A stretch of DNA of 54,133 nt, taken from assembly GCA_034432095.1 (NCBI GenBank), contig DAOUCV010000088.1:1-54133 (forward strand), in the 5' to 3' direction. The stretch is from Dehalococcoidales bacterium (GTDB taxonomy: Bacteria > Chloroflexota > Dehalococcoidia > Dehalococcoidales > UBA2162). The notes beneath the pieces were generated by a model. The model saw only the letters and a list, made by a program, of their open reading frames with translations, did not search any database and was not told the origin of the DNA. Of the stretch, positions 27,598 to 47,678 are shown one piece after another; the first letter of the stretch is position 1; each line of letters opens with the position of its first letter. The translations under genes and the position numbers were made by a program.

Positions 27598-28818
27598 TCA
27601 GGCCACTACCTGATTGAATATAGCAACTATTCTATCAGCCAGGTTCCTTCGTTCAAACTGGGATACATACTCCCATTTCGGATGAAAATTGCGAAATTCT
27701 CCTTGCTTCCACTGGCGAAAGATGTTTCTCAGTTGTTCTTTCATCTTCTCAAACTCGTATGATAGGATGAACCCGGCCTCAGCTTCTCTGACCAGTCTAG
27801 CCGCGTCACCATCCTCAGGCACAAGGGCAAGAATCGGTTTGCCGAGGCGAAGATACTCGTAGATTTTTGAAGGTATCCACTCGGCATATGGAGGCATGAC
27901 TACGAAAAGAAAATCACCCCCGGCAGCAAAGGCAAGAGCTTTTTCTCGCACCAAATGCATTACTTTAGTTAAGTGTGGCATATTTATATCCTGAAGTGCA
28001 ATCGAGCCACGCCCAATAAATACTACCTCGGCTTGCCTATCTACCTCGTTAACCGCATTAAGAAAGGTCATAATCGGTTCTCTAAACTCTGGATAGAAAC
28101 TGCCCAGGAAAACAATGGTTAGCTTATCAGGGTACAGCCGGTAGGGTTTTATCTCAGTAAAATCAGACTCGTGGTAGCCGTCGGTTACTACCTCTATCTT
28201 GTCCTTCTGGGCTGAATATAGCTGACTTAACTGTTGCTTGTGGTAAGGGTGGATAACGATAACTTTATCGGCGGACTCTACGATTTGTCTCTCCTTTTTT
28301 CGGATCCGGCGCTTCAATATCTGTCGCAAGGGAGGCACTAAGGTGTCGTCAAGAAAGCGATTAAGAAAGTCATTGCCAGTCAGCAAGTCGCCGAATTCAG
28401 CAACCCAGGGAATACTAAATTCTTTTTTGAGTTCCATAGCGACAAAATGGGCAGAGTAGGGGGCAGAATCACTGTAAATCAGGTTAACCTTTTCTTTCTG
28501 TAAGACGCTTCTCGCTTCTCTCAAAGCTGGAGAATACCAACTCTCATAGCCGTCAGGAAATTGAAAGTTCATCTTCAGCCTTCGGAGGACATATAGCCAC
28601 TCCTTAGGTAGCTCACGGTGCCCGACATGGTGAACTTCAATGTTAGCAGGGATATCCTTAAGGAGGGAGTAGTCTTTTCCATAGCTCACTGTTTCAGCCG
28701 CAGAAAGCACAACAGGTTGCCAGCCAAGCTCAGGAAGAAACCTAATGAGTCGGTGACCTCCAAACCACCCACCCATCAGTGGCGGGAAGAAATAGTCAAT
28801 GCACAGCACCTTTTTCAT
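27598..28818 (-). CDS. Glycosyltransferase family 4-like
   Basis: YFFPP, GWQPVV, DSAPYSAH, PSKIYEYLRLGKPILA. Confidence 0.83.
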   Translation of the reverse strand: MKKVLCIDYFFPPLMGGWFGGHRLIRFLPELGWQPVVLSAAETVSYGKDYSLLKDIPANIEVHHVGHRELPKEWLYVLRRLKMNFQFPDGYESWYSPALREARSVLQKEKVNLIYSDSAPYSAHFVAMELKKEFSIPWVAEFGDLLTGNDFLNRFLDDTLVPPLRQILKRRIRKKERQIVESADKVIVIHPYHKQQLSQLYSAQKDKIEVVTDGYHESDFTEIKPYRLYPDKLTIVFLGSFYPEFREPIMTFLNAVNEVDRQAEVVFIGRGSIALQDINMPHLTKVMHLVREKALAFAAGGDFLFVVMPPYAEWIPSKIYEYLRLGKPILALVPEDGDAARLVREAEAGFILSYEFEKMKEQLRNIFRQWKQGEFRNFHPKWEYVSQFERRNLADRIVAIFNQVVA

Positions 28819-28847
28819 CTGATAGATTTCCTATTTCCTCTGGTTGT

Positions 28848-31250
28848 TTATGAAGATAGTTTATTGTCAGGCTCAGCATAAAGAATATCGTGCCAAACTG
28901 AAATAACGAACCCTCTATTGCTAAGCCAGTCTGCGACCTCTTCCCTTTCGTTAGAATAGTGGTTGACTGGTGTCACAATTCTGGGCCTATAAGTTCTTAA
29001 AGTTTCCTCCGCTCCCTTTAAAAGGTCGGTTGTCGCTCCCTCCACGTTGGCCTTTATTAGGTGCAGAGCACTTAATCTACATTCCTTTACCAGCTGGTCT
29101 ACAGTTGTTGAAGAGACAGCTAGACTTTCCTGGCTTCTTATCCTGATGGAGTGTCCTGCCGAGCGAGCATCAATGAAGAGCTCCACACGTCCAGATTGTG
29201 AGGCTAAAGCCACATTCATTGGAACCACATTCGTACATTTATTCAGTTCGATGTTCTTTTTTAAGCACTCAAAATTTCCTGGGTGTGGTTCAACCGCAAC
29301 CACAGTACCTGTTCTCCCAACCTGTTTGGATGCTTTTATGGTGTATATACCAATATGTGCTCCGGCATCAAGCACAACCTGGCCCTTTTGAGGCCGGTAG
29401 TTATCGTAGATTCCCTGCCGCCATATCGCGCCAATATGGTCTACCGCATCGCTAAGGTCGGGAGTAAAGACCTTTAACTCTCCCGGCACCTTAATGAGCC
29501 ATAAGGAATCTGCTCTGCGCTGAACAATCATGGCATGCAATAAGAGGTAATAAACCAAATAGGCAAGTGACCCAATCACAGGGACATTTAGAAAGCCGCT
29601 CTTAAATCTCTGTAAAGCTTCTAAGCTCGCAAGTTTGTCAAGCCTTAATATCCTCCGACCAAGGAAAATAGTGCTCTGAGCCAGGAAAGTTCGTCCCTTC
29701 TCTCTAACGGGACTCCGCCTAATAAGCGTGGTTTCCAATTTCCCCCCTGCGAACCGTTTGGTCAAGTTTGCTATCTTTTTGACTACCTTAATAGTTAGAA
29801 TGTACTGTAAGATTGCGTCTTTTTCAACCTTAGTTAAGATACCACTGGCGAACCAACCAAGGAGAACAAATGCTACTACCCCAGTGGCTACCTTCATCAG
29901 CAATGAGAGCCAGGACCGCTGACTGGTTATTTCCCAGCCAATGGCGAAGGCTACAATCAAGAACAAGAACCCCAGGGCTAACTTACCCCAAGTATAGTCT
30001 ACCACGAAAGCCTTCTGCGCCCAATAATAGCAAAGTACGGCGTATAGGATATAGGCGACAACAGAGCTTGTGGCTGCGGCCAGAGTGCCGAATTTCGGGA
30101 TAAGTATGAAGTTTAGCCCCAGATTTGCGAAAGCGGCGATGATGGCGGCTGTGGCATTGAACTCCGGCTTCTTAGCTAGAAGCAGAGCCATTCCTGCGGG
30201 AATCATTAACAAATAGATAAAAGGAGACAGGGTGAGCAATGGCACCAATTTCACCGCCGCCTGATATTCCGCTTTTGCTCCAAAGAGGAAGGTAAACGCT
30301 CGTAGCACATCGCCGGTGCCCAGAGCAATAGCCAGATACAGGATACCACCAGCCAGGAAAAGGTAGAGCATCAATTTTTGCAGAAGCTTCTTGATGTCCT
30401 CGGTTGGGCTACCAGCGGCATACGAAAAAAAGAAGGGGTCAATGAAAAGAGCAAGAGGACCGGACAAAAAAACGCTAAAGAGGCCGGCGAAGCTGTAAGC
30501 CACCGAATAGATACCGACTGCCGCCCCACCGTGAAAATAATTCAGTATAAGCCTATCAGATAAGGCAAGCGACCACATTGCAATGCCGGTGAAGACATAG
30601 GGAAAACCAAGCCTTAACAATTGTCTAAGATACGAAGCATTGAGGGAGAAGCTAACGTACCGCGAGACGAAAGGAAACATGGAGAATAGAACGATTATGT
30701 AGGCGACAAGGCCTGACTCAAAGTAACCCCCAATGCCCCTCCCCAGAAAGGCGATAAACCATAGCTTTAGGGCAAAATCGAGAAGAAACCTGAACAAAGA
30801 GAAGCCCACATAGGGACCAGCCTTTTTTTCAAGTTGCAGTATGGTAAAAGGGATAGTTTGCAAAAGGGAGATAAAAAGAAAACCTCCGACGAGTCTTATG
30901 GCGTAAGCATAATCTCCACTACGGAAAAGGAGTGAGGACAGTTGGGGAGCTTGACTGAATAGGACTGCCCCGACTAAGGCACCGGTAAGAAAATACCACA
31001 GGCACGCGTTGCCGACAAGCCTTCTCCTCTCCCTGCTCTCGGCCTCGTAGTAAAGGCGGTACAACCCACTGACGACCCCAACACTAGCAAAAATGGTGAC
31101 CAATGGGATGACCGTAATAAGTACCGAGATAATACCATATTCTGAAGGTGGGAATAGCCGCAAATATAGCGGCAGCAGGAGAAAACCAAGAGCCGCTTGG
31201 GCAATACTACCTGCTCCATAGACAAAAAAGTTCTTTAGGACATTTCCCAC
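28848..31250 (-). CDS. Wzx/MOP-type flippase fused to a C-terminal FkbM methyltransferase (800 aa)
   Basis: N-terminal multi-TM region (LLLPLYLRLFPPSEYG, SDRLIL, GIYSVAY, NLGLNFILIPKFG); C-terminal VLDAGAHIG, VVAVEP, KANVEG. GTG start. Confidence 0.85.
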   Translation of the reverse strand: MGNVLKNFFVYGAGSIAQAALGFLLLPLYLRLFPPSEYGIISVLITVIPLVTIFASVGVVSGLYRLYYEAESRERRRLVGNACLWYFLTGALVGAVLFSQAPQLSSLLFRSGDYAYAIRLVGGFLFISLLQTIPFTILQLEKKAGPYVGFSLFRFLLDFALKLWFIAFLGRGIGGYFESGLVAYIIVLFSMFPFVSRYVSFSLNASYLRQLLRLGFPYVFTGIAMWSLALSDRLILNYFHGGAAVGIYSVAYSFAGLFSVFLSGPLALFIDPFFFSYAAGSPTEDIKKLLQKLMLYLFLAGGILYLAIALGTGDVLRAFTFLFGAKAEYQAAVKLVPLLTLSPFIYLLMIPAGMALLLAKKPEFNATAAIIAAFANLGLNFILIPKFGTLAAATSSVVAYILYAVLCYYWAQKAFVVDYTWGKLALGFLFLIVAFAIGWEITSQRSWLSLLMKVATGVVAFVLLGWFASGILTKVEKDAILQYILTIKVVKKIANLTKRFAGGKLETTLIRRSPVREKGRTFLAQSTIFLGRRILRLDKLASLEALQRFKSGFLNVPVIGSLAYLVYYLLLHAMIVQRRADSLWLIKVPGELKVFTPDLSDAVDHIGAIWRQGIYDNYRPQKGQVVLDAGAHIGIYTIKASKQVGRTGTVVAVEPHPGNFECLKKNIELNKCTNVVPMNVALASQSGRVELFIDARSAGHSIRIRSQESLAVSSTTVDQLVKECRLSALHLIKANVEGATTDLLKGAEETLRTYRPRIVTPVNHYSNEREEVADWLSNRGFVISVWHDILYAEPDNKLSS

Positions 31251-31306
31251 AACTGTATCAGTAACCCTCTCTGAGAGTTACTCCTCGCGCCGGCGCTGCA
31301 ACCCAT

Positions 31307-31336
31307 ATCGTACTCTATCAGCGTAATCATAGTCAA
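31307..31336 (-). promoter_or_regulatory. Sigma70-type promoter of the minus-strand glycan arm
   Basis: TTGACT (31336..31331), 18 nt, TACGAT (31312..31307), about 55 nt upstream of the flippase start. Confidence 0.5.
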
Positions 31337-31378
31337 TTTTATTAAATCTGGGCTGTCTTGTCCTGCAAAGTAGACAGC

Positions 31379-31500
31379 ATCCTTGAGAATAAGAGACCCT
31401 GTCCCGATAGAATTTCTCCAGTCCTTCATATCGCCATATCGCCAACTATGTCAGGACAGTTCGTCTGCAGAAAGTCACCGCATACCAGTGACATTAGCCC
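31379..31500 (-). pseudogene. Remnant of a family-5 SBP gene
   Basis: Reads PDIV-(1-nt shift)-YGDMKDWRNSIGTGSLILKD, versus PEVVDKYGDLKDWRNVIGTGPWMLTD in the intact SBP at 543..2339. Confidence 0.7.
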
Positions 31501-31514
31501 TTCCATCGCATACG

Positions 31515-32045
31515 TTAGAAAAGAATGCAGCCTGTCCAAGTAATCCTGTCGGCGCGGAACTCACTATCCAGACCCAATTTATCCAGTAGCCCTACAACAT
31601 CAACGGCAATTGCTTCCAACGACGTTCTTGCTTTGTCAGGATACAGGCAGGGTTCATTACTTTTGGCTTTGCAAATATCACACAACCCACAGTTTCCGCC
31701 AATCATTCCCCATACCTGGTTGATTCCTCTTTCCCGCAGGAATTCTTCCATCTGAAGAACCTTATTGTGAAAATCTATCTTAGTCTGTATAACACCCTCC
31801 CTGTTGCCTTTAACATCTATGTCCTTTGAATATTGTAATAGCAAGCCACGTTGGAACTTACTGAGTTTGATGCTGATTTCCTCCAACGAACCGACATAAG
31901 GTGGGCACGTATAGTTGTTGCCATAGTTCTCGCACTTATTTTCTATACAAAAGGCTCTTATTCGTTTTTCTGGGAACACAATCGCTGAGTCAAATTCGAG
32001 GCATGTCTCAATTCCCAATTGCCTGGCAAATTCTGCGGCTCTCAT
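31515..32045 (-). CDS. Cys-rich predicted metal-binding protein (DUF2284-like)
   Basis: C-x4-C-x2-YG-x4-CPP, GGNCGLCDIC, CLYPDKARTSLEAIAVDV. Confidence 0.8.
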   Translation of the reverse strand: MRAAEFARQLGIETCLEFDSAIVFPEKRIRAFCIENKCENYGNNYTCPPYVGSLEEISIKLSKFQRGLLLQYSKDIDVKGNREGVIQTKIDFHNKVLQMEEFLRERGINQVWGMIGGNCGLCDICKAKSNEPCLYPDKARTSLEAIAVDVVGLLDKLGLDSEFRADRITWTGCILF

Positions 32046-32267
32046 TTACCACCCCCATCTTTTTCCGCCTTTGGTTCTATCTTGCCGGATAACCCTGCTG
32101 CATTCTACTAAAAAGCCAAGTAGTGGTGTCAATAGGTAGGTTTTCCCTGATTACCTGCCCACGACCCGCTGGAAGGCTGGGATGGCTATTGCCAGCGTCA
32201 CAATATCAAAACCAAATGAGAAGTATGCAATGTTGGCTAAGTGTAAGCAGGCAGCCGAAAATTGGGC

Positions 32268-33662
32268 CTATTTGCTGACAACAATTGCGAAGGATACCCC
32301 GCTCTCTACCTGGGTGGTCTCAGTTTCGGCGCTCTTACCCTCTCCAATCTCAGCGAGGCGGACTTCGGAGAACTCTCCATGTGACTCCAGAGCCATGGCA
32401 TAGCTGATGACAGTGAAAGCGCTATCGGCTTTCCCCTTTATGGTGAGCTGGTCAGTCTCTATCTCTATAGCAGTGAAGTATGCCCCGGATGGAAGGGGCA
32501 CCAGTAACCAATGTCAACTCGCCAGCGAAGTCATCTTTACTGAGAATATGTTGATGTTCTTGTCTCATGGTCTGTATACTGGCTTCTATTTCGTTTATAG
32601 TTTCCTCGATTCGCTTTGCCTCATCAAAAGCGAGCCGAGCTTGACGGAGTTCCTGGCTAACGCTGGTTAACTCAGCTTGCAATCGCTCAGTTTCAGCACC
32701 AGCCTTATTTTTGACCAGGTACAGAGGAGACAGAAGACCAATGACAATTACTAAAGTCAGGGTGAGAACCAAGTTTTGTATTAATAATGAGAGGGCTCGG
32801 CTTGGTTTTTTGCCTGGCAATATATTGAGGTTTATATCGCGGTAGCCGGCAATGTCTCCCCTGGCTACTTTCTTCTGCGGCATCTTTTTGAGTGCCAGCC
32901 CCATATTGGTGGCATATTTAGCAATAGGTAAGTCTGCGGGGGACTCCAGTGGCGGAATTAAAGGCTTGACCGGGTATTCTATCTCTGTTTGGATAATCTT
33001 GCTGACAGTAGCATTGGTTGACAGCTCCCCGGTCAACAGCAAAGGAGTGTTTGGATTAAGATGGCTCTCAGGATGGCTTGTGTTATAGAACTTAATTGTC
33101 TTTGCTAATTCATCGGTTAGTCGCCGAACGTTATCCTCTACGCTTGCTTCTCCTCCCCTTGGCATTATTGAGTGCATAATGGCGGGCAAACCTTTGGCTA
33201 CCAGAACAATATCAAAACAGTCAGGCTCCAAATCTACAATGAGGGCATCTTCTCTATTAGCGGCTCTAGCCAGTGCCAGTGGCTTCAGGTCTATGAGGTA
33301 GGGCTCTATTCCGGCTTCTTCCAGTGTCTGAACCATAGCATCAACAAGATTTCGTGGTACACCCAAAACAAAGAAGCCCCCCAGAGGATAGCCTCCTCTA
33401 GAAGGGCGGGCTTCACCCGGGGTAGAGTCAGGATACGGTAAGTAAAGGGCAAGCCAGTCAAGCTAGTAATGACTCTTTCTTTGGGTACCCCTGTCGATTT
33501 GAACAGGGTGTCAATAGCTTCTCCCTCGGTTTTTGGCTTGAGGATAAGTCTATCGCTGACCAACCCCGATGTCAGCGGCACATCCCCCCAACTCTGCACC
33601 TTTTTTCCCTGTACAGAGAGTAGCCTGATACTGGCGGCACTGATATTTAGCGTTACATACAT
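32268..33662 (-). pseudogene. PilM-PilN fusion, disrupted by two lesions
   Basis: Start ATG 33662. Actin-like PilM segment breaks at about 33376 (EEAILWG/FFVLGVPRN, frame change). PilN part (INLNILP, TM, coiled coil) has +1 in the G4 run 32495..32498 and resumes LPSGAYFTAIEI...VSFAIVVSK. Confidence 0.8.
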
Positions 33663-33684
33663 TTTGTCGATAGTCCTTCCCCCT

Positions 33685-34257
33685 CTACTCAAAGGCTGGA
33701 GATTGCGTATAAATAGCCAGACTCAAACTAGCCGTGACAGGTGTAGCGTCTTTAGTAACAACCTCTCCTTCAGACTGTTCGCTAGCCCTGGTAATACTCA
33801 AATACCTCACGCTAAGTGTCTTGAACTCGCCATTTTCCAGCTTGCTGAGGAACCTGACCAATTGTGAGAAACTTCCCTCGATGGTCATATCCAGCTAGAA
33901 AGCATAATAGCCGTGTTCTCCAACGTGCTCCAATGACCAGGGTTGAGTTGTCAAAGGGATGACTTTAACCTCGCAGGCATCGGCAAGCTCGAGAATGGCA
34001 TTGATGACCTCGGTGCTGTTCATCTTGCTGGGAAATGTGCCTTGCTCGGCAGCCAGACCCGCCCGAGCTGCGGCTAATCGCTGTTCCAAGTCCTGAGGAG
34101 GCCGGGGTATTTGAGCCAGTGCCTGGCTGACGTCAATAATCTGGGAAGTCAGCGCTTCATGCTCATTGCGCTGTTTCATATAGCTCATACCGAGATAACC
34201 GTTGCCTATTAATACGATAATAATTGAGACTATAGCGACTAGCTTGACCCTTGCCAA
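33685..34257 (-). pseudogene. PilO-like protein with an internal in-frame TAG
   Basis: N-terminal TM and coiled coil; ...YYAF*LDMTIEGSFSQLVRFL... stays in frame through TAG 33895..33897; 191 codons in total. Confidence 0.75.
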
Positions 34258-34292
34258 AGTCTCTCCTTTACTGGTACCGTTATATTGTCTTA

Positions 34293-34831
34293 CTAATCCA
34301 CCTGCCAGGAAAGGACAGAGACACCTCCATCTGCAATTTGAACCTCAGCGCGGACAGTACTGTCACCGGCGGTGGATACAATCTCATAGCTTGCTCCTAT
34401 CTCATTGGTGAAGGCGCCGCCATCTCCCACATTGGCTGGAGCATCTGCCATTGCCGTCCAGGTGCTACTCCGGATGTCATACCTCCAGAAAGCGCTGTTT
34501 CCACCTCCTCTGAAGGCGTAAAGAGGGCAGGAAGAATTTATCCTGGTTACAATGATGGTGGGTACGATATTATTAATTGTCTCGCTTAGCTGATAGGTAG
34601 TGCCGTCTCCCGGGGAGGACAGCTCATCAGCCAGGCCATCGTTGGTCAGGCGCCAGATGGCATGCTCCACCCCAGCGTCAGTTGTATATTGCTCAGTTAT
34701 CGCTTGCCCATAGTTCGAGAGCCAATGAGGGTGCTGCTGGCGTGACTGAGAAAAGGGGCTATGACCACTGAGCCGATAGCCAGAGTGACCAGGACTAGAG
34801 GAAGGACCTGTCCTTTTTCGCCGTTCATCAT
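34293..34831 (-). pseudogene. Minor pilin/PilX-like protein, -1 frameshift
   Basis: MMNGEKGQVLPLVLVTLAIG (class III-like signal); adding one base near 34714 joins it to YGQAITEQYTTDAGVEHAIWRL; 539+1 = 540 nt. Confidence 0.75.
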
Positions 34832-34833
34832 TC

Positions 34834-35283
34834 TTACTCCTCTGTAGGTCGGCGGTAGACCTGGTATGTCCCGTTCTCACTCACATCCCATCTCCCCTGT
34901 GGGTATGAGGTTAAGTTCATAGTAATAGTGTGGTCTTCAACGGAGAAGCTAGCGCTGGCAATATTCTGCGCTAGCGTCATATTTGAGCTACCCGTCATAC
35001 GGTAAAGCTCAGTGCCAACCACGCTATAAGTGGCTGACGAGTCGTCGGTTAGAGTAAGTACCAGCTCCCTACCGCCGCTTGCCCTACTTGCTCTCTGCCC
35101 ATCAAGGCTGAACCAATGAGCCACGTTTTGAACCTCGTGCGTGGCGGTCAGCCTGTCATTACCATAATCGGTAACGGTGATAATCTGATAGATAGCCGTA
35201 CCCACCCCACTGACGATGAGACCGGTGATAGCCGTAGCTACAAGCAGTTCAACTAAAGAGAACCCTCCCTCTCTCTTAATCAT
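34834..35283 (-). CDS. Prepilin-type minor pilin
   Basis: EGG/FSLVELLVA with Glu+5 and hydrophobic helix; frame intact. Confidence 0.85.
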   Translation of the reverse strand: MIKREGGFSLVELLVATAITGLIVSGVGTAIYQIITVTDYGNDRLTATHEVQNVAHWFSLDGQRASRASGGRELVLTLTDDSSATYSVVGTELYRMTGSSNMTLAQNIASASFSVEDHTITMNLTSYPQGRWDVSENGTYQVYRRPTEE

Positions 35284-35699
35284 CGGTTCACCTTATAGCC
35301 TTCGACGGTCAGTATGGCGCTGGCGTTTTTATAGATAGTTACCCTTATTTTTTGAATATCAGCATCATTGTCCGGGGTAGCCTCAACCTCAAGGGAAATG
35401 GCGTAGCCTTCTGGCGTCTCAACCGTGGAATAGGTGGTCTCATAGGGGCAGCTTTTAACGTATTCAAGCTGGTTCCGTGCTAATCTCTGGGCTACAGCTT
35501 CCTGCCCACCCTCACGAACGGCAATTGACCCTGTTGATAGTGCTGTTACGAAAGCAACCACGGCAACCCCTACGATGGAAACTGAGACTATAGACTCGGG
35601 TAGGCTCAGTCCTCCCTGCTCCTGAAACCAGACATTTACTTTGCCAAGCCACTGTTTTATTGTCCTTACCATCTTCTGTTTCCTGCTAAAGTTGCTCAC
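35280..35699 (-). CDS. Prepilin-type minor pilin
   Basis: QGG/LSLPESIV with Glu+5, ARNQLEYVK; frame intact; start may be GTG 35699 or ATG 35672. Confidence 0.75.
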   Translation of the reverse strand: MSNFSRKQKMVRTIKQWLGKVNVWFQEQGGLSLPESIVSVSIVGVAVVAFVTALSTGSIAVREGGQEAVAQRLARNQLEYVKSCPYETTYSTVETPEGYAISLEVEATPDNDADIQKIRVTIYKNASAILTVEGYKVNR

Positions 35700-36903
35700 C
35701 TTATTGACTGTATCATGGAGTAGAGTGGCGTTATCATCGAGAGAGCAATGAAGGCAACCACCAATCCGACGGCTACCGTCAAAACCGGCTCCATCATTGC
35801 TGTGAGACTATCAATCCTCTGGTCAACTCTCTGTTCGTAATAATCAGCCAGAGTAGCGAGGCTAGCGTCCAGGGTACCCGTTTTCTCACCGACGGCTATC
35901 ATCTCCACCAGAAGCTGGGGGAAGAGTCTAATGCCAGCCATCGACTGGGACAGGCTATTACCTTGTACCAGTTTATCTCGCACATCCTGTAATGCCTGAC
36001 GGATGAGCCTGTTCTTGACCGTTTGAAGTATGACATTCATTGTCTGATGCAACTGGAGCCCGGCTTTTAACATCACTGATACTGACTGGCAGAAGTGGTA
36101 CATATTTCGTTCTATGTTGATTGCCCCAATCACCGGTGCCTGTAGCATCAGTCTGTCCACGGTGAGTTTTCCTCTCGGCAACCCTGTGTAGCCAACGACC
36201 AAAATAATTAGAGTAAGTAGCCCTCCCAGAAGGTAGAGCCTATTGGTGATGAGGAAATCAGCCATAGCGATGACCAGTTTTGTCGTCCAGGGTAACTCAG
36301 CACCGAGTGAGGTAAATAGCCCGACCAGCGGTGGCAGGGCAACAGTGACCATTATGGTAAAGACACCGATAGCCATGAGCACAACCAAAGCGGGATACGC
36401 CAAAGAGCGTGTTATTTTTTCATCGCTGTTGCCTGTTTTTCCATATATCCAGCTATCTGCCTGAGACCGACCTCAAGATTTCCGGCTAGCCCGCTGGCTC
36501 TTATCACCTGACAGTAGGTATAGGAGAACGCCTGTGGGTACTTATTAAGTGCCTGGGAAAGGTTGCTGCCTTGTTGAAGCTCCGCAATCAATCCGGCAAT
36601 GACTTTTCTGAGGGTAGATTTAGAAGCCTGCCCCTCGAGTAGTTGCAGAGCGGTCAGAATAGCAACTCCGGACTCGACTAATGTAGCTAGCTGACGTGAG
36701 AAATTAATCACATCTTGAGCCTTAACCCCAAAGAGGGTGGGAAATAATCTGTCTAGACTCAAGCCTGAACCTGTTTCTCTGAGACTGAGGACACGGTACC
36801 CGGCCCAGTATAAGGCTTCCTCGGCCATGCTTTTGGAAGCGGCATCAATTTTACCTTGCACAATCCGCTTATCGAGAGTGTAGGCTGTATATTGGTATCC
36901 CAT
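35696..36903 (-). pseudogene. pilC: PilC/GspF platform protein, -1 frameshift
   Basis: Start ATG 36903; FSRQLATLVESG; break at T6 run 36415..36420 (MKK*); adding one A gives MKKITRSLAYP...VGEKTG...MEP; 1208+1 = 1209 nt. Confidence 0.85.
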
Positions 36904-36934
36904 AATCACCCAGCCTGAGTTTGAGTACGCTCCG

Positions 36935-38639
36935 TCAGCCAATGGAAAAAACGCTACGCATCACCTCACTCATTGAGGTGATGCCTTCTTTCACCTTCAG
37001 CATCCCGTCCCGCTTCATGGTTATCATCCCTTCCCTGAGCGCCTCGGCTCTAATATCACTGGCACCGGCATTGCTGAGTAACATCCTCCTAATTTCCTCG
37101 CTCATGATCAGGATTTCAAAAAGCCCGGTTCGTCCCCGGTAGCCGGTATTGGCACACAGGTTACACCCTACAGCGCCATAAAAGGTGGCTATGGGTTCAT
37201 TCATTTCTTCATTGTAGGCCATTTGTTCCTCTAATGAGGGCTGAGATACCTCACGGCAGTGAGTACAGAGGCGGCGGACCATCCGTTGGGCGACAATACC
37301 GACCAGTGTTGAGGAGATAAGATACGGCTCAACACCCAAGTCCCTTAGCCGGAAAAGCACGCCAACGGCATCATTGCGTGGATTGAAGAGAGTACTAAAT
37401 GTCCCGTAAGAGCTGCCTGAACCGCTGTTGCTGCCGTATCTTTATCCCGTATCTCACCCACCAGAATAATATCGGGGTCATGCCGCATTATGGACCTCAG
37501 CCCGCTAGCAAAGGTTATCCCAGCCTTAAGGTTGACCTGGGTTTGACTGATGTCCTCAAAGCGGTACTCAATAGGGTCCTCGATTGTCAGGATATTACGT
37601 TCGTTTCGGTCGAGCTGGTTAATTGACGCGTAGAGGGTAGTCGTTTTGCCTGAGCCAGTAGGACCGCCCACCAGTATTAGACCGAAGGGACTTCCCAGCA
37701 TTGCCCGATACTTCTCGAGGGCCTCGGGTAAGAGACCCAACTCAGGCAAGGTGAAAAGGGAGAGAGACTTATCTAAAATTCGCAACGTTAACCTCTCCCC
37801 GTAAGCCGTCCCCATAGAGGCAACACGAATGTCAATATCTCTATCACCTACCCTGATAGAGAATTGACCGTCCTGAGGGCGTCTTTGTTCGGCGATGTTC
37901 ATGTCAGCCAGAATCTTGACCCTAGACACCAGTTGCATGTGAACGCTTAATGGCAGGGAAAACACGTCATGAAGGACCCCATCAATGCGGTAGCGGACCC
38001 GCAATCTATTCTCCTGGGGCTCAAGATGGATATCCGAGGCTCTATCCCGTACTGCCTGCGTTATTAATAAGTCCAGACTCTGAGCAATTGGCGTCCGGGC
38101 AACAAGATCTGGCGTAACCTCAGCCTCTTCTTCGACGGTAGGGGCTAACCGGCTTACCTGTTTCTCTATTTCGCTAGCGGACCGGTAGTTAAGGTCAATC
38201 GCCCGCTCAATATCAGAAGGAATCCCGAGGGCTACCTCAACCCTCATCTTAGCCTGAGCCTTGATGTCCTCTATGGTGCGGATATCCTCCGGGTCAGCCA
38301 TAACCACCACCAGAGCATCGCCGACTACGTCAAGGGGGATGAGAGTGTGTTTCCTGGCCACACTTTCCGGGATTAACCGCAGGGCATTGGGTTGAACCTT
38401 GTGTCTCTTGAGGTCGATTAGAGGCACATTTAGCTGGACACTGAGCACGGTGGCCAGGTCTTCAGCTTTGACCAGCCCCTGGTTTACCAGTATCTGCTTG
38501 AGTTCCCCTCCCTGCCTCCGCTGTAGCTCCAGGGCATTTTCTAACTGTTCGGCGGTGATGAGGTTCTCTTCAACCAGCATCTTGCCCAGGCTTTCACATG
38601 CTTCTCTTCAATAGCTCTCACCGATTCGTCTGTGTTCAC
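36935..38639 (-). pseudogene. pilB: PilB/GspE assembly ATPase, two -1 frameshifts
   Basis: GTG 38639 with RBS AGGAG; shift at 38592..38594 before LGKMLVEE; ASDIHLEP, Walker A GPTGSGKT, ILVGEIRD; second shift near 37375 destroys H-A-N-D; C-terminal CxxC...CxxC. 1705+2 = 1707 nt. Confidence 0.88.
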
Positions 38640-38708
38640 TTTTTCTCCTAAGTCCACGGGGAGACTTTATCGTTTATGCTGAGTAAAGTCATAGTTCTCT
38701 GTCTCGTT

Positions 38709-39095
38709 TCAGGTTTTGGCTGCCTTTTTCTTGGCCAGCAATGTCCTCACCCGACTCGTTGTTTCTGAAGGGGCGGCTGGTTTGATGATGTAGTCGTCAG
38801 CCCCTACCTTGAGCCCGGTGGCTTTATCTGTTTCCTGCGCTTTGTCCGAGAGCATCAAAATGGGCAGCTGGGCAGTCCGGGGGTCAGCCCGCAAGCGATG
38901 ACAAATCTCAAAACCATCTATGCCCGGCAGCATGACATCCAGAACAACGAGGTCAGGTTTATCATTTACAGCTTTCCTCAGTCCTTCCAGTCCGTTAGCG
39001 GCGGTGATCACTTGATAGCCCTCATGCTGGAGGGTGTATACCATAAGTCTCAGGGTACCCGGGTCGTCTTCGATAATTAAAATTTTATTATCCAT
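38709..39095 (-). CDS. Single-domain response regulator receiver
   Basis: ILIIEDD, PDLVVLDVMLP, DGFEIC, GADDYIIKP. Confidence 0.9.
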   Translation of the reverse strand: MDNKILIIEDDPGTLRLMVYTLQHEGYQVITAANGLEGLRKAVNDKPDLVVLDVMLPGIDGFEICHRLRADPRTAQLPILMLSDKAQETDKATGLKVGADDYIIKPAAPSETTSRVRTLLAKKKAAKT

Positions 39096-39174
39096 AAGAA
39101 TTACCTATAGCGTAACCTGTAGGTCTGTCATTCAGCCTTTTACATTTAGCTCAGGCACTGCTGGCAGCCGGTAG

Positions 39175-39526
39175 CTAGTGCTGAGTAACTTTTCCGGTAG
39201 AGTCACAGGAGTAGTTCGCTGATGTCATTCCCGTCCGCAGATAGTTCGGATACAATGGGTATCCAGTAGGAAAGGCTGACATATCGTTTGGTTGACGAGG
39301 TGACATTCACTGAACTTAGGCTATTTTTGGCCATCATGACATCCATGGCTGTCTGAACGGTTACTAGCTCGGTGGCTTGCGCTTCTTCTTCACCCGAGCC
39401 GATGACTCCGGTGACATTGAGCAGAACGACTGCGGCTAGTGCCGCCATAATGCCGATGACAACAAGCAGCTCTACCAGGGTAAAGCCCTTGCTATCCTGG
39501 CAAACTTTTCCTCCAAATCGCCTCAT
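39175..39526 (-). pseudogene. Type IV (major-like) pilin, +1 frameshift
   Basis: ATG 39526 after AAGGAGG; KG/FTLVELLVV; removing one base of T3 39287..39289 gives TNDMSAFPTGYPLYPNYLR...YSCDSTGKVTQH* (351 nt). Confidence 0.75.
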
Positions 39527-39545
39527 GGTTTCGCCTCCTTCCCTC

Positions 39546-39812
39546 CTATTTCTTGCGTTTGTTGTTCTCACAGTTCTCTCCCTTTTTTCTGTCCGGCGTC
39601 GGTTTGTTTTTGCCCCTGAGCAGTTCCTTATCTATAGGCATGTTATATTCCCTCAAGAAAGCTACCAGGGCCGCCTGTGGGATACGGTACTGCCCGTGGG
39701 GGTGAAGATAAGCGTCGAGTTTCTCAGACTTAATCCACTTTAGGACTGTAGACCTGCTTACGCTACAGTACTTCATGACATCGCCGGTAGTTAACCTTCT
39801 TTCAGCATCCAT
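39546..39812 (-). CDS. Excisionase-family (MerR-like) helix-turn-helix protein
   Basis: LTTGDVMKYCSVSRSTVLKWIKSEKL...GQYRI; first gene of the pilus operon. Confidence 0.8.
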   Translation of the reverse strand: MDAERRLTTGDVMKYCSVSRSTVLKWIKSEKLDAYLHPHGQYRIPQAALVAFLREYNMPIDKELLRGKNKPTPDRKKGENCENNKRKK

Positions 39813-40321
39813 TTAATATAACCCCCAATTAGCTTCTTAACGGAACGGTTTTTTAAGCCACTGTAGTTCTATGTGCTATATGAGACCTCCGATACCTTGT
39901 TTACATTTTGTTTTCATTAGAGATAGTAGGCGTTCGTTACCGTCTATAGCCCATCCGTACTAGAAGGAATGAGTAATTGTGGCTATTGGTCCAGACTGTA
40001 GTTACGATTCTGTGGGAGGGACCTTACGCAGTAAAAGCCTGAACTCCACATCCTGGTGATTTTTTAACAAGATTTAACGCCAGTTTTATGTCCCCATAAA
40101 TGTCCGGAGCTTAAAATCAAAAATAGAGATAAGAAAGCCCGTGAGTAGTGCCTAAGGTCAGCAAGTAATCGTACAGAGTAGGGCTCAGATAGTGATTACG
40201 GGGATGCCGGATAGGGCTCTTTGGGAAAAAGAGTCTGGGGAAAATAGACTGGCGAGGAGAAGCAAAAGGTATTGAGTTATGGATAAGCCTCAATCTAGCT
40301 GATTTAATAGTGACTATTGTG

Positions 40322-40357
40322 ACTATGAGAGCCTTTTACTATGAGAGCCTTTTACTA
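40322..40357 (+). repeat. 16-bp exact tandem duplication
   Basis: ACTATGAGAGCCTTTT at 40322..40337 and 40338..40353, then ACTA. Confidence 0.9.
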
Positions 40358-40358
40358 C

Positions 40359-40388
40359 TTGACAAAAAGTCTGGCCTCAGTTTATACT
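40359..40388 (+). promoter_or_regulatory. Sigma70-type promoter of the trp operon
   Basis: TTGACA (40359..40364), 18 nt, TATACT (40383..40388). Confidence 0.75.
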
Positions 40389-40410
40389 TTTCGCAAAGGG
40401 AATATTGAAA

Positions 40411-40702
40411 GGCTGGGAACGAGACTAGTATGTCCCGAGCGAGGCTCAGAGAGCCGGGTCAGGTGCGAGCCGGTGCCAGACGCAGGGGCTGAATGGACTC
40501 GGGAGCTGCAGCCAAAAGTCCTGATCTGGTCAGGATAAGTAGGTGTCGACGGAAGAGGGCACCGTTAGCATAGCCCAGGGTATTGACCGATTTTATTCGG
40601 GACTCGTACCTGAGAGAGATGGTTGCTACAATTTTTTGGGCAATCAAGTAGGGTGGCACCGCGGAGGAGAACCCCTCGCCCCTAGGCGAGGGGTTTCTAT
40701 TT
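40411..40702 (+). ncRNA. T-box riboswitch, tryptophan specifier
   Basis: Stem I with AGTA, CAGAGAG and GGTGCGA; specifier GAA-TGG-A (TGG 40494..40496); T-box AGGGTGGCACCGCGG 40650..40664; terminator stem 40670..40680/40685..40695. Confidence 0.9.
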
Positions 40703-40719
40703 ATTACTGGAGAGGTCTT

Positions 40720-42198
40720 ATGTATTATCCGACACTAGAAGAAGTTAAGAAGCTCAGATGGGATGGTAATTTAGTACCTGTTTACCGTGAAATTGTGGCT
40801 GATTTGGAGACACCGGTGTCCGCCTTCCTCAAAATCGCTCGTGGCGGCTATTCTTTTCTTTTGGAAAGTGTGGAGGGTGGTGAACGACTGGCTCGTTACA
40901 GTTTTATCGGTACTGAACCATATCGGGTGCTGACCATCAGGGGTGAGGATAAGGTTGACCCGCTGCCCCTCATCGCTGAGGAATTGAGCCGGTATAAGGT
41001 AGCACCAGTCGGCGAGCTGCCTAAGTTCTGTGGCGGTGCTGTAGGTTATCTCAGTTACGAAACGGCGACACGTTTCGAGGAGTTGCCCTCTCCAGACCGC
41101 GACCCGTTAGGTTTACCCGAATCGCTATTTCTCTTCGTGGATACCGTGCTCATCTTCGACCATGTAACTCATAAGATTAAGATTTTGAGTCATGTACATC
41201 TCGACGGAGATATAGAAGAAGCCTATCAAAAGGCGGTGGGTAAGATTGATGAGCTGGTAACCAGGCTGAATCAACCAATCCAGCCCAGACAGCAGGTGAA
41301 CGGGACGGTCAAGCTACTTCAAAGAGAGTCCAAGCCCACGTCAAACTTCACCCGGGAGGAATACGAAGCCGCTGTGGTCAAGATAAAGCAGTATATCACG
41401 GCTGGTGAAGTTATTCAGGTGGTGCCATCCCAGCGCTGGTCCCAACCGACTAGGGCTACCCCCTTTAACATCTATAGGGCACTGCGTACCATCAACCCCT
41501 CTCCCTATATGTACTACTTTGATTTTAAGGACTTTTACGTTATTGGGGCTTCTCCCGAGATCCTGGTGAGGGTTGAGGATGGTACTGTGGTGACCCGTCC
41601 GCTGGCTGGTACCAGGCCGAGAGGGAAGGACCCAGCTGAAGACGCCAGGCTGGAGCAGGAGCTTCGCCATGATGAAAAGGAGAGGGCAGAACATATCATG
41701 CTGGTTGACCTGGGGCGCAACGATATCGGGCGGTTTAGCGAGCCAGGCACAGTTGAAGTCAGTGAACTGATGGAAGTCGAGCGTTACTCCCATGTTATGC
41801 ACTTGGTTACCAATGTGCAGGGTAAGCTGCGGCGTGACATGGATGCCTATGCTGCCCTGAGGGCCTGCTTTCCCGCTGGCACCGTGTCCGGGGCGCCTAA
41901 AATCCGGGCGATGGAAATAATCGCTGAAGTTGAGCCTGAGAAAAGAGGACCTTATGCTGGAGCCGTCGGCTACTTTTCCTTCTCCGGCACTATGGATATG
42001 GCGATAGCCATAAGGACTATGGTGGTTAAACAGGGCATTGCCTATACCCAGGCGGGGGGTGGCATCGTCCATGATAGTGTTCCCGAACGCGAGTATGAGG
42101 AGACGATGAATAAAGCTAGGGCACTGCTTAATGCCATCAGTCAGGCTGAGAGCTCAGATTCTTTTATGCCGGGAGGGAGTCGTGCTGCTGCTGATTGA
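40720..42198 (+). CDS. trpE: Anthranilate synthase component I
   Basis: Start moved to ATG 40720 (RBS GGAGAGG). DLETPVSAF, LLESVEGGE, NPSPYM, PLAGTRPRG, EHIMLVDLGRND, FPAGTVSGAPK. Confidence 0.95.
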   Translation: MYYPTLEEVKKLRWDGNLVPVYREIVADLETPVSAFLKIARGGYSFLLESVEGGERLARYSFIGTEPYRVLTIRGEDKVDPLPLIAEELSRYKVAPVGELPKFCGGAVGYLSYETATRFEELPSPDRDPLGLPESLFLFVDTVLIFDHVTHKIKILSHVHLDGDIEEAYQKAVGKIDELVTRLNQPIQPRQQVNGTVKLLQRESKPTSNFTREEYEAAVVKIKQYITAGEVIQVVPSQRWSQPTRATPFNIYRALRTINPSPYMYYFDFKDFYVIGASPEILVRVEDGTVVTRPLAGTRPRGKDPAEDARLEQELRHDEKERAEHIMLVDLGRNDIGRFSEPGTVEVSELMEVERYSHVMHLVTNVQGKLRRDMDAYAALRACFPAGTVSGAPKIRAMEIIAEVEPEKRGPYAGAVGYFSFSGTMDMAIAIRTMVVKQGIAYTQAGGGIVHDSVPEREYEETMNKARALLNAISQAESSDSFMPGGSRAAAD

Positions 42199-42760
42199 TA
42201 ACTACGATAGCTTTACCTATAACCTCTTCCAGTACCTGAGTGAACTGGGGGAGGAGGTAGTAGTGGTGCGTAATGACAAGACCACTCTTGATGAGATTAG
42301 CCGGATGAGACCCGAGCGCATAGTTATCTCCCCCGGCCCATCAACCCCACTGCGTGCCGGAATCTCCAACGAGGTCATCAAGCACTTCGGTCCTGCCTTG
42401 CCGATACTGGGGGTCTGCCTGGGGCACCAGTGTATCGGTTTTAGCTATGGTGGCACAATAGGTCAGGCTAAGCAGATAATGCACGGCAAGTCGTCCCTTA
42501 TCTATCATAACGGACAGGGAGTGCTGGCTGGTTTGCCTAACCCCTTCTCGGCCATCCGCTACCACTCGCTGGTAGTGAAGCGGCAAGGACTACCTGACTG
42601 TCTTGAAGTGACTGCCTGGACGGACGATGGCGAGATTATGGGGCTCAGGCACAAGCAGTATCCGGTAGAGGGCGTCCAGTTCCACCCCGAGTCCTTCATG
42701 ACCGAAGTGGGGAAAGACTTACTAAAGAATTTCCTAAACAAAGGGGTAAACCAAAAATGA
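42182..42760 (+). CDS. trpG: Anthranilate synthase component II (glutamine amidotransferase)
   Basis: GTG 42182; IDNYDSFTYNL, SPGP, GVCLGHQ, HGK, RYHSL, QFHPES. Confidence 0.95.
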   Translation: MLLLIDNYDSFTYNLFQYLSELGEEVVVVRNDKTTLDEISRMRPERIVISPGPSTPLRAGISNEVIKHFGPALPILGVCLGHQCIGFSYGGTIGQAKQIMHGKSSLIYHNGQGVLAGLPNPFSAIRYHSLVVKRQGLPDCLEVTAWTDDGEIMGLRHKQYPVEGVQFHPESFMTEVGKDLLKNFLNKGVNQK

Positions 42761-43770
42761 TTAGAGAAGCTATTCAGACTTTAGTAGCTGGGAAGTCGCT
42801 GACTATGGATGAGGCGGCACAGGTTATGGAGGAGATAATGGAGGGGCAGGTCACCCCGGCTCAGTTCGGGGCTTTTGTTACCGCCCTCAGGCTCAAAGGG
42901 GAGACCGCTGATGAAATTGCTGGTTTGGCTAAGACGATGAGGGCTAAAGCCGTGCGGGTAGAAACGGCATCTCCGGTTGTGGATGTTGTCGGCACCGGAG
43001 GCGATGGTTTGAACACCTTTAATATTTCCACCACGGCGGCTTTTGTCGTTGCTGGAGCGGGACTGAAAGTAGCCAAACACGGCAACCGCGCCGCCAGCAG
43101 TCAGTGCGGCAGCGCCGATGTGCTGGAAGCCCTGGGGGTTAAGCTTGAACTTACGGCTGAGCAGGTACAGCAGTGTATTGAGGAGGTGGGGATAGGTTTT
43201 ATGTTCGCCCCGGCATTCCACCCGGCGATGAAATATGCGGCGGCTCTCAGGCGTGAGATTGGCATCCGTACGGTGTTCAACATCGTCGGACCTCTGACCA
43301 ACCCGGCTGATGCCAAGGCTTATCTGCTGGGTGTTGCCGATAGCTCATTGGTAAGGAAGCTGGCACAGGTCCTAGAGAGTCTGGGGTGTCATCACGCCCT
43401 TGTCGTCCACGGTGGTGACGGATTGGATGAAATCACCATTACCGGAAAAACACGGGTTTGTGAACTTAAAGAAGGTCGTATTACCAGCTATACCATCAGC
43501 CCGGAAGACTTTGGTTTACCCAGGGCTGACCTGGCTAGCCTTAAGGGTGGCACCGCCACTGAAAACTCAGCCTTGTTGCGTTCTATCCTGTCCGGTGCCC
43601 CTGGTTCCCAACGAGATGTAGTGTTGATGAACGCTGCGGCCGCTCTGGTTGCCGGTGATAAGGCAAAGACAATTCAGCAAGGGATGGACTTAGCTAAAGA
43701 GGCTCTGGACAATGGTAAAGCCCTGGCGAAACTCGAACAGCTAATCAAGCTCAGCCAGAGCTTTACCTAG
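42757..43770 (+). CDS. trpD: Anthranilate phosphoribosyltransferase
   Basis: GTGGDG, FNIST, KHGNRAASS, GSADVLEALG, GLDE. Confidence 0.96.
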   Translation: MIREAIQTLVAGKSLTMDEAAQVMEEIMEGQVTPAQFGAFVTALRLKGETADEIAGLAKTMRAKAVRVETASPVVDVVGTGGDGLNTFNISTTAAFVVAGAGLKVAKHGNRAASSQCGSADVLEALGVKLELTAEQVQQCIEEVGIGFMFAPAFHPAMKYAAALRREIGIRTVFNIVGPLTNPADAKAYLLGVADSSLVRKLAQVLESLGCHHALVVHGGDGLDEITITGKTRVCELKEGRITSYTISPEDFGLPRADLASLKGGTATENSALLRSILSGAPGSQRDVVLMNAAAALVAGDKAKTIQQGMDLAKEALDNGKALAKLEQLIKLSQSFT

Positions 43771-43779
43771 AGGCAGAAA

Positions 43780-44553
43780 ATGATCTTAGACCAGATAGTT
43801 GCCCATAGTAGGCTGGAACTTGAGAAACGGAAGAGGAGCTTTTCTCTGGAGGAAGTGCGGAGGGTTGCTTTGGAACAGCCTCCGTCCCTCAACTTTGCTT
43901 CGGCTCTGCGTGGCGAGCGCATTAAGCTCATTGCCGAGGTCAAAAAAGCTTCGCCCTCGAAGGGCATTATCCGTTCCGATTTTGACCCGGTGGAGATAGC
44001 CAAGATTTACGCTGGTAACGGAGCCTCGGCAATATCGGTATTGACTGAGTCAAAGTACTTTCAGGGCAGCCTCGGTCACCTCAAGGGTATTAGAAAGACA
44101 ATAGGGAATAAGCTGCCTGTGCTGAGGAAGGATTTCATCCTTGAGCCCTATCAGGTCTATGAATCAAGAGCCTATGGTGCCGATGGCTTATTGCTCATTG
44201 TGGGTATTTTGACTCCCGAGAAGCTGGAGGAATTGCTGAAGCTAAGTCATGAGCTTGGTATGGGTTGTCTGGTAGAAGTGCATAACGAAGCTGAGCTTGA
44301 GATTGCTCTGAAAAGCGGGGCACGGGTCATTGGCATCAATAACCGTGACTTGAACACTTTTGAAGTAGACCTGACTACTACCCAGCGGCTAAGACGACTT
44401 ATCCCCCGAGACAGAATAGCAGTCAGCGAAAGTGGCATAAAAGACCGCCGTGATGTAGAAAAGCTGGCTGATTGGGGCGTGGATGCCGTTCTCATCGGTG
44501 AGTCTTTAGTGTCAGCCGCTGACATTGCGGCTAAGATTAAGGAGATTTTGTGA
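43780..44553 (+). CDS. trpC: Indole-3-glycerol phosphate synthase
   Basis: [43 protein letters not shown]. Confidence 0.96.
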
Positions 44554-45206
44554 CCAAGGTCAAGATTTGCGGGTTATCCGAGATAGAGCATGCCCTAGCC
44601 GCTGGTGAAGCGGGTGCCGATTTCCTGGGGCTGGTCTTTGCCCCCAGCCGGCGTCAGATTTCTCCTGAAAAGGCACGGCAGATAGCAGAAGCGGTGCATA
44701 ATTTGAAAAATCGACCGGAGGTGGTTGGCATCTTTGTTAATCTAGCCTCTGAGGAAATCAATCGTATTGCTGAGCACTGCCGGTTAGACTGGGTGCAGCT
44801 CAGTGGCGCTGAAACCTGGCAGTATTGCCGGGAGATTAACAAACCGCTTATCAAGGTCATCCATGTCGCTCAAAATCAGCGGGCTGAAGATGTAATCGCT
44901 GAAATTCAACGGGGCTATGAGGTATTGACGAAAGGATTTTTCTGTCTTCTGGATTCACAGGTCGGTGATGCTTATGGTGGGACAGGGCAGGTCTTTAACT
45001 GGCAGTTGGCTAAGGAAGTGTCGGCCAGGTTTCCCGTGATGGTTGCCGGTGGGCTGACCCCAACCAATGTTGGTCGGCTAATCAGGGAGGTTGATCCTTG
45101 GGGAGTTGATGTTTCATCGGGCGTGGAGACCAACGGACGAAAAGACATTTCAAAAATCAGGGAGTTTATCAGTAGAGTGAAGGGAATTAAGGGAAGAAGC
45201 CATTGA
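44550..45206 (+). CDS. trpF: Phosphoribosylanthranilate isomerase
   Basis: [32 protein letters not shown]. Confidence 0.95.
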
Positions 45207-45242
45207 CCACCAGACCTTAAACAGATTTGAAGGGAGAAAAAA

Positions 45243-46430
45243 TTGCTGTCTGATAATAGAGGATACTTTGGAGACTACGGCGGACGGTTTGTCCCGGAGA
45301 CACTGATGCCGGTCCTGGATGAGCTTTTGGCAGTCTATGAAGGAGCGAAGGCTGATGCCACTTTCTGGGCTGAATTTGACTCGCTCTCCCGTGACTACTC
45401 AGGAAGGCCAACACCGCTCTATCTGGCGGAAAAGCTAACCGAACACTGCGGCGGCGCTAAGATTTTCCTCAAGCGGGAGGACTTGGCTCATACCGGAGCC
45501 CATAAAATCAACAACGCTCTGGGGCAGGGCCTTCTTGCCCGCAGAATGGGCAAGCGGAGAATCATTGCTGAGACCGGAGCTGGGCAGCATGGGGTGGCTA
45601 CTGCTGCAGTGTGCGCCATGCTGGGGCTGGAGTGCATCATTTATATGGGTGAGGAAGATATAAAACGCCAGTCCCTGAATGTCTTCCGTATGAAGCTAAT
45701 GGGTGCCGAAGTAAGGCCAGTGTCCGGGGGCAGCCGAACCCTGAAGGATGCCATCAACGAGGCAATAAGAGACTGGGTGACTAATGCTTGGGATACATAC
45801 TACCTTCTTGGCTCAGTCGTGGGTCCCCACCCTTACCCACTCATGGTGCGGGATTTCCAGTCAATAATCGGTAGGGAGACGAGACAGCAAATACTGGATA
45901 AATTAGGGCGTTTGCCCAACTACATAATTGCCTGTGTCGGCGGGGGCAGTAACGCCATCGGCATCTTCTATCCTTTCTTAAAGGACAAGGATGTCAGGCT
46001 TATCGGGGTGGAGGCAGCGGGAAAGGGGCTGGATACTGGTAAGCATGCTGCCTCACTGGTGGCGGGAAGAGTGGGAATACTCCACGGTGCCAAATCCTAT
46101 ATCCTCCAGGATAATTATGGACAGATTAAGGAGACGCACAGCATCTCGGCAGGGCTGGACTATCCGGGGGTCGGTCCGGAGCACAGCTACCTCAAGGATA
46201 CCGGACGTGCCACCTATGTCGCCGTAAGCGATGATGAAGCGCTTGAGGGCTTTCAGCTACTCTGCCATACCGAGGGCATTACTCCAGCCCTCGAGCCGGC
46301 TCACGCTATCTTCTATGCCGCCCGGATGGCAGGTGGACTGGATAAGGAGCAAATCATCATCGTCAACCTCTCCGGACGTGGCGATAAGGACATAGATATT
46401 GTGGCTAAGGCACTGGGGGCGAAACCTTGA
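45243..46430 (+). CDS. trpB: Tryptophan synthase beta chain
   Basis: [44 protein letters not shown]; TTG start. Confidence 0.97.
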
Positions 46431-47215
46431 GTCGTATTGATACTGTCTTCGAATGGCCAGGGCACAAAGCTCTTATCCCCTATGTTACTGTAGGCTATCC
46501 CAGCATTGAAGCTACCCTCAAAGTGGTTCCTCTACTTGCCAGCAGTGGTTGCGATATGGTGGAGCTTGGTATACCCTTCTCCGACCCTCTGGCTGACGGT
46601 GTTACGATACAAAAGGCAAGTTTTCGCGCTTTGCAGAATGGCGTTACCCCCGAGACCTGTCTTGAGGTAGCCAGGGAATTAAGCCAGAAGGTCAATATAC
46701 CACTATTGTTTATGACCTATTTCAATCCGGTCTTTAGTTATGGCCTTGAAGAATTCTGTAACGCCTGCGCCAGCTCCGGCATTGACGGCTTGATCATCCC
46801 TGACCTGCCCCCGGAGGAAGGTATAGAGCTGGAAACCATTACCCGGAGGGAGGGGCTTGACCTCATTTACCTCCTTGCCCCAACCAGTAGTGAAGAGCGT
46901 ATCCGGCTGGTAGCGGAGAGGTCTCGGGGGTTCATATATCTGGTCTCAGTGACCGGTGTTACCGGAGCCAGAGACAGACTACCTGCAGGCCTGGATTCAT
47001 TTGTCGCCAGAGTGAAGAAGATAGCCACCCGGCCGCTCTGCGTTGGGTTCGGGATATCTACCCCGGAACAGGCAAGCTGGTTAGCCCGTATGGTTGAAGG
47101 AGTGATTGTGGGAAGCCGAGTAATTCAGTATCTGGAAGCTGATGAATCAATGGTAAAGGTAGCGAAGTTTGCTAGAGAATTAAGGCTTGCCCTTGACCGG
47201 CCAGGCAGAAGTTAG
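46427..47215 (+). CDS. trpA: Tryptophan synthase alpha chain
   Basis: [32 protein letters not shown]; TTG start overlapping the trpB stop. Confidence 0.96.
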
Positions 47216-47226
47216 ATTTACCAGAC

Positions 47227-47255: not shown

Positions 47256-47302
47256 AATCCCAAGCGGGTAAACAATTCAAGGGATGTTATTGGAGGCTAG
47301 CA

Positions 47303-47659: not shown

Positions 47660-47678
47660 ATACCCCTCCCCTTAGCAA

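Follow-up and report, generated by a model that had tools for sequence, protein, structure and literature searches.

Window-specific lesions throughout a type IV pilus operon from an uncultured Dehalococcoidia bacterium of a hot spring

We analysed a stretch of 54,133 nucleotides (nt), contig DAOUCV010000088.1 of an uncultured Dehalococcoidia bacterium from a hot spring (hereafter the window), in which positions 32268–40336 correspond by orthology to a type IV pilus operon. This operon is conserved widely among Dehalococcoidia, in the form found in bacteria that have no outer membrane. An earlier note, made from the sequence alone, had listed eight lesions in this operon. Alignments to two intact lineages showed all eight to be present and confined to the window; they consist of six frameshifts of one base each, a deletion of 79 nt and a nonsense codon in which TAG replaces CGG. 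Truncation affects the pilin, the ATPase, the platform protein and the alignment proteins alike, so the locus cannot yield a pilus. This operon orthologue was, in all likelihood, recently pseudogenised in the hot-spring population by ordinary gene decay.

The lesions were placed by three-way DNA alignments of the window with the two intact lineages, a sister population (contigs L164 and L172–L175) and a second clade (L165–L168). On the minus strand, 32268–39812 consists of short open reading frames (ORFs) that abut or overlap, and tblastn with intact orthologues showed a frame switch at each claimed site. Across the eight genes compared, coding indels whose length is not divisible by three occur in the window only, and the remaining ones among the three lineages are all multiples of three. 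The features of the operon, in order from its upstream end, are as follows.

40211..40336, plus strand: remnant of a DUF5658 gene, divergently transcribed, located with the L164 and L165 DUF5658 proteins as tblastn queries.
39546..39812, minus strand: HTH_17 (MerR/excisionase-type) regulator, 88 amino acids (aa), intact; PF12728, E = 1e-11.
39175..39526, minus strand: major prepilin pseudogene with the class III signal G/FTLVELL; N_methyl PF07963, E = 6e-8.
38709..39095, minus strand: stand-alone response-regulator receiver, 128 aa, intact; PF00072, E = 2e-28.
36935..38639, minus strand: pseudogene of a PilB/GspE-type assembly ATPase, 568 aa when intact; T2SSE PF00437, E = 5e-91, with MshEN PF05157.
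35696..36903, minus strand: pseudogene of a PilC/GspF platform protein, 402 aa when intact; one T2SSF domain on each of its ORFs (176 and 235 aa).
35280..35699, minus strand: minor-pilin-like gene 1, 139 aa, intact; no Pfam match, orthologues of 130–140 aa in L164, L165 and L172.
34834..35283, minus strand: minor pilin 2, 149 aa, intact; N_methyl motif (PF07963) and a weak ComGF match, orthologues of 149–151 aa.
34293..34831, minus strand: pseudogene of a PilX/GspK-like modular pilin, recognised by frame switch, alignment and repeat comparison.
33685..34257, minus strand: PilO-like (GspM-like) gene; the tblastn alignment crosses the stop.
32268..33662, minus strand: pseudogene of a fused PilM–PilN (PilMN), 491–493 aa when intact; the PilN domain lies on the last fragment (77 aa).

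In the pilin gene, an extra base in the T-run at 39287–39289, absent from L164, L165 and L172, puts the last ~36 codons (the C-terminal third) out of frame. The PilB domains are divided over two ORFs of 411 and 141 aa that are 88–93% identical to intact 568-aa proteins. The first PilB frameshift, which the earlier note had put at 38592..38594, is real, and alignment places the missing base between 38598 and 38597, an equivalent position within 6 nt; it falls at about codon 15, within a 20-codon N-terminal extension. The second, between 37377 and 37376, lies past the His box (SSIHA/NDA) and removes the C-terminal ~145 aa, including a CxxC...CxxC motif. A base missing from the T6 run at 36415–36420 separates the two T2SSF domains of PilC, and the second is lost; reading through it restores both (E = 3e-54). 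At the distal end of the operon, the break near 33376 that had been noted as a change of frame turned out to be the 79-nt deletion, between 33376 and 33375 in the PilM part, which takes 26 conserved codons and shifts the frame, and a base is inserted in the G-run at 32495–32498 in the PilN part. PilM_2 and PilN are both matched on the intact L165 and L172 products (PilM_2, E = 1e-11); in the window PilN is matched (E = 1e-9), and PilM_2 stays below the cut-off because of the deletion. As anticipated in the note, the corrections restore the families: read-through gives full-length PilB, PilC and PilMN. For annotation, the ~15 ORF fragments are better called as six pseudogenes than as separate proteins.

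The PilO-like gene carries an in-frame TAG at 33895–33897, codon 121 of 190, where relatives have CGG (Arg), so that two substitutions were needed; its T2SSM_b matches are below the cut-off (E = 0.005 in the window and 2.5e-4 in L165). The PilX-like gene lacks one base at 34715/34714 (codon 40) and meets a stop five codons on. It also has a single Kelch-type repeat, compared with five in the sister (355 aa), through an in-frame loss of 176 codons (528 nt) with its junction near 34421/34422, and this collapse is probably a further lesion. The corresponding L172 product has Kelch/beta-propeller Pfam matches. The C-terminal module of PilX-like proteins varies among lineages, with five Kelch-type repeats in the sister lineage (L172 5582–6649), two ~150-aa repeats with a faint galactose-binding-domain match in the second clade (L165 13820–15118) and almost no module in the 157-aa protein of L005; it resembles a swappable tip-adhesin module.

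Upstream, the DUF5658 gene, which flanks the operon in all relatives, is reduced to codons 1–42 of 108 and begins with ATA instead of ATG; truncated and without a start codon, it is probably another lesion. The conserved operon block starts with the intact HTH_17 gene, which has an orthologue upstream of the pilin gene in contigs L166–L169. The response regulator, despite its open frame, may already be drifting, having 8 window-specific amino-acid changes compared with 1 in the sister lineage.

Could the frameshifts be programmed or reversible, by recoding or phase variation, with a pilus still being made? One of them does lie in an A6/T6 run of the kind capable of slippage. However, no orthologue is frameshifted at any of the sites, hence there is no conserved slippery site; the tracts are at most 6 nt long and invariant between assemblies; the 79-nt deletion and the nonsense codon are irreversible; and seven simultaneous events in five genes would be without precedent. 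We regard this explanation as next to impossible.

The intact lineages were reached by a protein search with the read-through PilB, followed by exact look-ups. The search returned intact PilB proteins of 548–568 aa at 93% and 88% identity, whose contigs form the two lineages. A PilB scan of metagenome contigs had yielded only relatives at ≤57% identity, dominated by the generic motif TIEDPIEY and missing even the JGI contigs identical to the window, and a genome contig scan gave Dehalococcoidales/Dehalococcoidaceae metagenome-assembled genomes as the nearest in GTDB (PilB 68–74% identity) and no genome of the window's species. Among the best 120 PilB homologues listed, which are 80–93% identical, all those examined lie in intact operons, and no intact PilB closer than 93% was present in a collection of 5.8 billion proteins.

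The sister population comes from five datasets and is ~85% identical to the window in nucleotide sequence from the pilin gene through PilMN, with PilB 92–93% identical in amino acids; its contigs are 99.5–99.9% identical to one another and free of indels. L172 is NODE_1708 of ENA ERZ781361, and another sister dataset, Ga0129298, has a number close to that of the window's own sample. The second clade, at ~81% nucleotide identity, has the operon intact in all four contigs. Both lineages share one gene order: divergent DUF5658, HTH_17, pilin (131 aa), response regulator, PilB (568 aa), PilC (402 aa), two minor pilins, PilX-like (355–432 aa), PilO-like (186–190 aa) and fused PilM–N (491–493 aa); an OmpR-type regulator follows DUF5658 in the second clade only. 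The sister operon in L172 thus resembles the window's in gene order and in the divergent upstream DUF5658, and differs from it in its intact structural genes, its five Kelch repeats, its flanking genes and its HTH_17 gene. The last of these (L164 6517–6783; L172 628–894; L173 4651–4917) is frameshifted after YRIP, leaving a 50-aa ORF, identically in three datasets. With HTH_17 intact in the window and frameshifted in the sister, different parts of the same operon are broken in the two lineages. Upstream of the sister operon, the gene for a PAS-histidine kinase beside CheR in L174 (578–2167, minus strand; IMG 3300010328) carries a GAA-to-TAA-type nonsense change (E to stop), which L173 lacks.

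A sequencing or assembly artefact limited to the pilus stretch would be the most trivial account of the lesions, and three of them do touch short homopolymers (T6 at 36415–36420, G4 at 32495–32498 and T3 at 39287–39289). The data, however, are error-corrected Illumina HiSeq 2x150 reads from a mat of the Cone Pool hot spring, and the region 28709–40341 is 100% identical across a SPAdes co-assembly, a JGI single-sample assembly and a Logan assembly, with read libraries common to all three. Exact look-up of the response-regulator protein led to JGI contigs of IMG 3300022548 and 3300010284 and to a Logan contig of SRR5216256; the window itself corresponds to JGI contigs Ga0129301_1000110 (2–40341) and Ga0129301_1001091 (40219–54133), which overlap by 123 nt. 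Four of the indels fall outside any run longer than 2 nt. Long-read or low-coverage error is thus very unlikely, given Illumina data, three agreeing assemblers and indels that mostly lie outside such runs. Nor is a 79-nt deletion a type of sequencing error, and the same is true of the 528-nt repeat collapse, the nonsense codon that took two steps and the truncation of DUF5658; together with the indels, they make the lesions heterogeneous in kind. The ~45 kb of flanking sequence on the same contigs is free of errors, and all other ORFs in the window match Pfam domains end to end, which bears out the note's observation that no comparable break occurs elsewhere. The chance that eight random lesions in 54 kb would all fall within 7.5 kb (14% of the window) is ~1.4e-7. 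An artefact is accordingly highly improbable, and the proposal that the decay is real and runs through the whole locus is supported.

A different concern is that the sequence is a mosaic consensus, in which assemblers took majority paths through several loss-of-function haplotypes or past an intact minority. The assembly graph does branch at 40341. Positions 40325–40359 hold a tandem duplication of a 16-nt unit (CTATGAGAGCCTTTTA twice), exactly where Ga0129301_1000110 ends, whereas the co-assembly contig L001 has one copy of the unit followed by 143 unrelated nt (L001 1–143) with an imperfect palindrome. Beyond the truncated DUF5658 the population thus carries two arrangements, and the duplication and divergence beside that gene look like a structural polymorphism or the border of a repeat or mobile element. 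Over the operon itself, three assemblers, including the 13-kb Logan contig, follow a single identical path, and independent low-frequency lesions would not become consensus. We therefore consider a mosaic distinctly unlikely.

How far has the decay progressed? We counted lineage-specific codon changes with L165 as outgroup. Nonsynonymous and synonymous changes unique to the window numbered 118 and 191, compared with 68 and 154 for the intact sister L172 (odds ratio 1.4, Fisher p = 0.08); with L164, which covers the proximal genes, the counts were 63/146 and 54/128 (p = 1). Pairwise synonymous divergence (dS) from the sister is ~0.3–0.5 in seven genes (0.29–0.52) and 0.93 in the pilin gene, and the ratio of nonsynonymous to synonymous divergence is 0.08–0.38. 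Of 217 PilB positions near-invariant among the 120 homologues, the read-through protein differs at 1, compared with a mean of 1.1 for intact homologues, and in PilC 1 of 19 invariant positions has changed. Outside the lesions, the coding sequences still resemble genes under purifying selection. PilMN has an excess of window-specific changes, for which a separate history through recombination was considered and not adopted, as pairwise dS is similar across the operon.

Substitution decay is barely detectable, so inactivation is recent, at roughly ≤1% neutral divergence, and the invariant sites of PilB likewise indicate 1% or less. A two-phase hand calculation on the codon counts gives ~50 neutral substitutions over 6.5 kb (~0.8%). 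In bacterial mutation spectra there is roughly 1 indel per 10 substitutions, a ratio at which ~50 substitutions fits 7 indels. The suggestion that the decay was caught early is thus in keeping with the counts. In the sequence of events that we propose, one essential component would have been knocked out first, after which the whole unit would drift neutrally. Drift would then have added the six 1-nt indels, the 79-nt deletion and the nonsense codon, and probably also the collapse of the repeat array and the truncation of DUF5658. We also infer that the broken operon has become fixed in the population and that the organism has lost piliation.

Several points weigh against recent neutral decay and loss of the pilus. 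The increase in the ratio of nonsynonymous to synonymous changes on the window branch is not significant, and because that branch has more synonymous changes as well (191 compared with 154), the nonsynonymous excess is partly a rate effect. PilB shows no extra changes at invariant sites, which together with 7 indels is slightly indel-rich for neutral decay. The N-terminal PilB frameshift alone might be tolerable if translation restarts at ATG 38580. As the same read libraries underlie the three assemblies, a minority intact allele would escape notice. Finally, loss of piliation by the organism would not follow from this one locus alone.

The indel-rich decay, the near-zero substitution decay and the intact sister in a neighbouring dataset series (not established to be from the same mat) would also suit selection for pilus loss, for example by escape from pilus-dependent viruses with several loss-of-function alleles brought together afterwards by recombination, or an indel-prone mutation regime in the lineage. 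We think it quite unlikely that either of these, and not ordinary decay, accounts for the lesions.

The borders of the operon bear on whether the window holds a redundant copy, decaying beside a second intact type IV pilus locus that keeps the organism piliated. Homology to both lineages spans exactly the operon block, from 32269 to 40335, with flanks unlike those of either lineage, so that a relocated or acquired copy is conceivable, and pilD and pilT, which are not in the window, are also absent from the operon neighbourhood of the relatives. Against this, all relatives have DUF5658 in the position that the remnant occupies, a sign that the locus is the orthologous one. The flanking genes also differ between the two intact lineages; a changing context is thus normal for this operon, and the border of homology is no specific evidence for transfer. 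The assemblies that contain the window's contig yielded no sister-type PilB (P0001, P0122 and P0123). No remnants of the relatives' flanking genes were found in the window, and no tRNA or integration site was found at the operon border. We consider a redundant copy unlikely and retain pseudogenisation of the orthologous operon as the preferred explanation.

Type IV pilus operons of Gram-positive bacteria, which have no outer membrane, lack a secretin and contain PilM and PilN (PMC3244431). With the pil operons of Clostridium perfringens, C. difficile and Streptococcus sanguinis, the operon in the window shares a class III prepilin, PilB, PilC, PilM, PilN, a PilO-like protein, several minor pilins and the absence of a secretin. 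Unlike them, it has no pilD or pilT, includes a receiver-only response regulator and HTH_17, belongs to a Chloroflexota host and is non-functional. Fused PilMN and modular pilins with adhesin modules are familiar from work on Clostridium and S. sanguinis. In a literature search we found no publications on type IV pili in Dehalococcoidia.

Pseudogenisation of whole operons after loss of function is known in bacteria that have recently become restricted to a niche, such as Mycobacterium leprae and Shigella. There, too, several independent frameshifts, deletions and nonsense codons accumulate in one functional unit beside intact neighbours. The window differs from these cases in that its host is a free-living, uncultured bacterium of a hot-spring mat and in the very early stage of the decay, with ORFs still recognisable and substitution decay of ~1% or less.

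The intact flanks encode an STT3/AglB-type oligosaccharyltransferase, glycosyltransferases, epimerases, aminotransferases, trpEGDCFBA, ftsZ and ftsA. The glycosylation locus, which the earlier note had described as kept intact, indeed gives full-length domain matches. The oligosaccharyltransferase (785 aa, 2490–4847, minus strand) adjoins a ~26-kb glycan-synthesis cluster at 5045–31250, all of it intact, with several GT4 glycosyltransferases, epimerases, DegT aminotransferases, a B12-binding radical SAM enzyme, FkbM methyltransferases and, at 14456–16497, an E1 alpha/beta dehydrogenase pair. Within it, 28848–31250 (minus strand) encodes an 800-aa protein in which a Wzx-like polysaccharide flippase (Polysacc_synt) is fused to an FkbM methyltransferase domain at the C terminus; the gene was called at the same length in all three other assemblies. 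On the other side of the operon, the longest ORF for trpE (40543–42198, plus strand; 551 aa, GTG start) extends ~59 codons beyond the 492-aa JGI call; the true start probably lies downstream, which would leave a ~380-nt leader after the DUF5658 remnant.

As a phenomenon, this is ordinary operon pseudogenisation, of which the window adds one more case of modest interest. The locus amounts to a clean knockout, made by nature, of a pilus operon whose conservation across Dehalococcoidia is otherwise tight. It also gives a dated view of operon decay at its earliest stage, with indels preceding substitutions. If the organism has lost piliation, as we infer, piliation would be dispensable for at least one hot-spring mat population.

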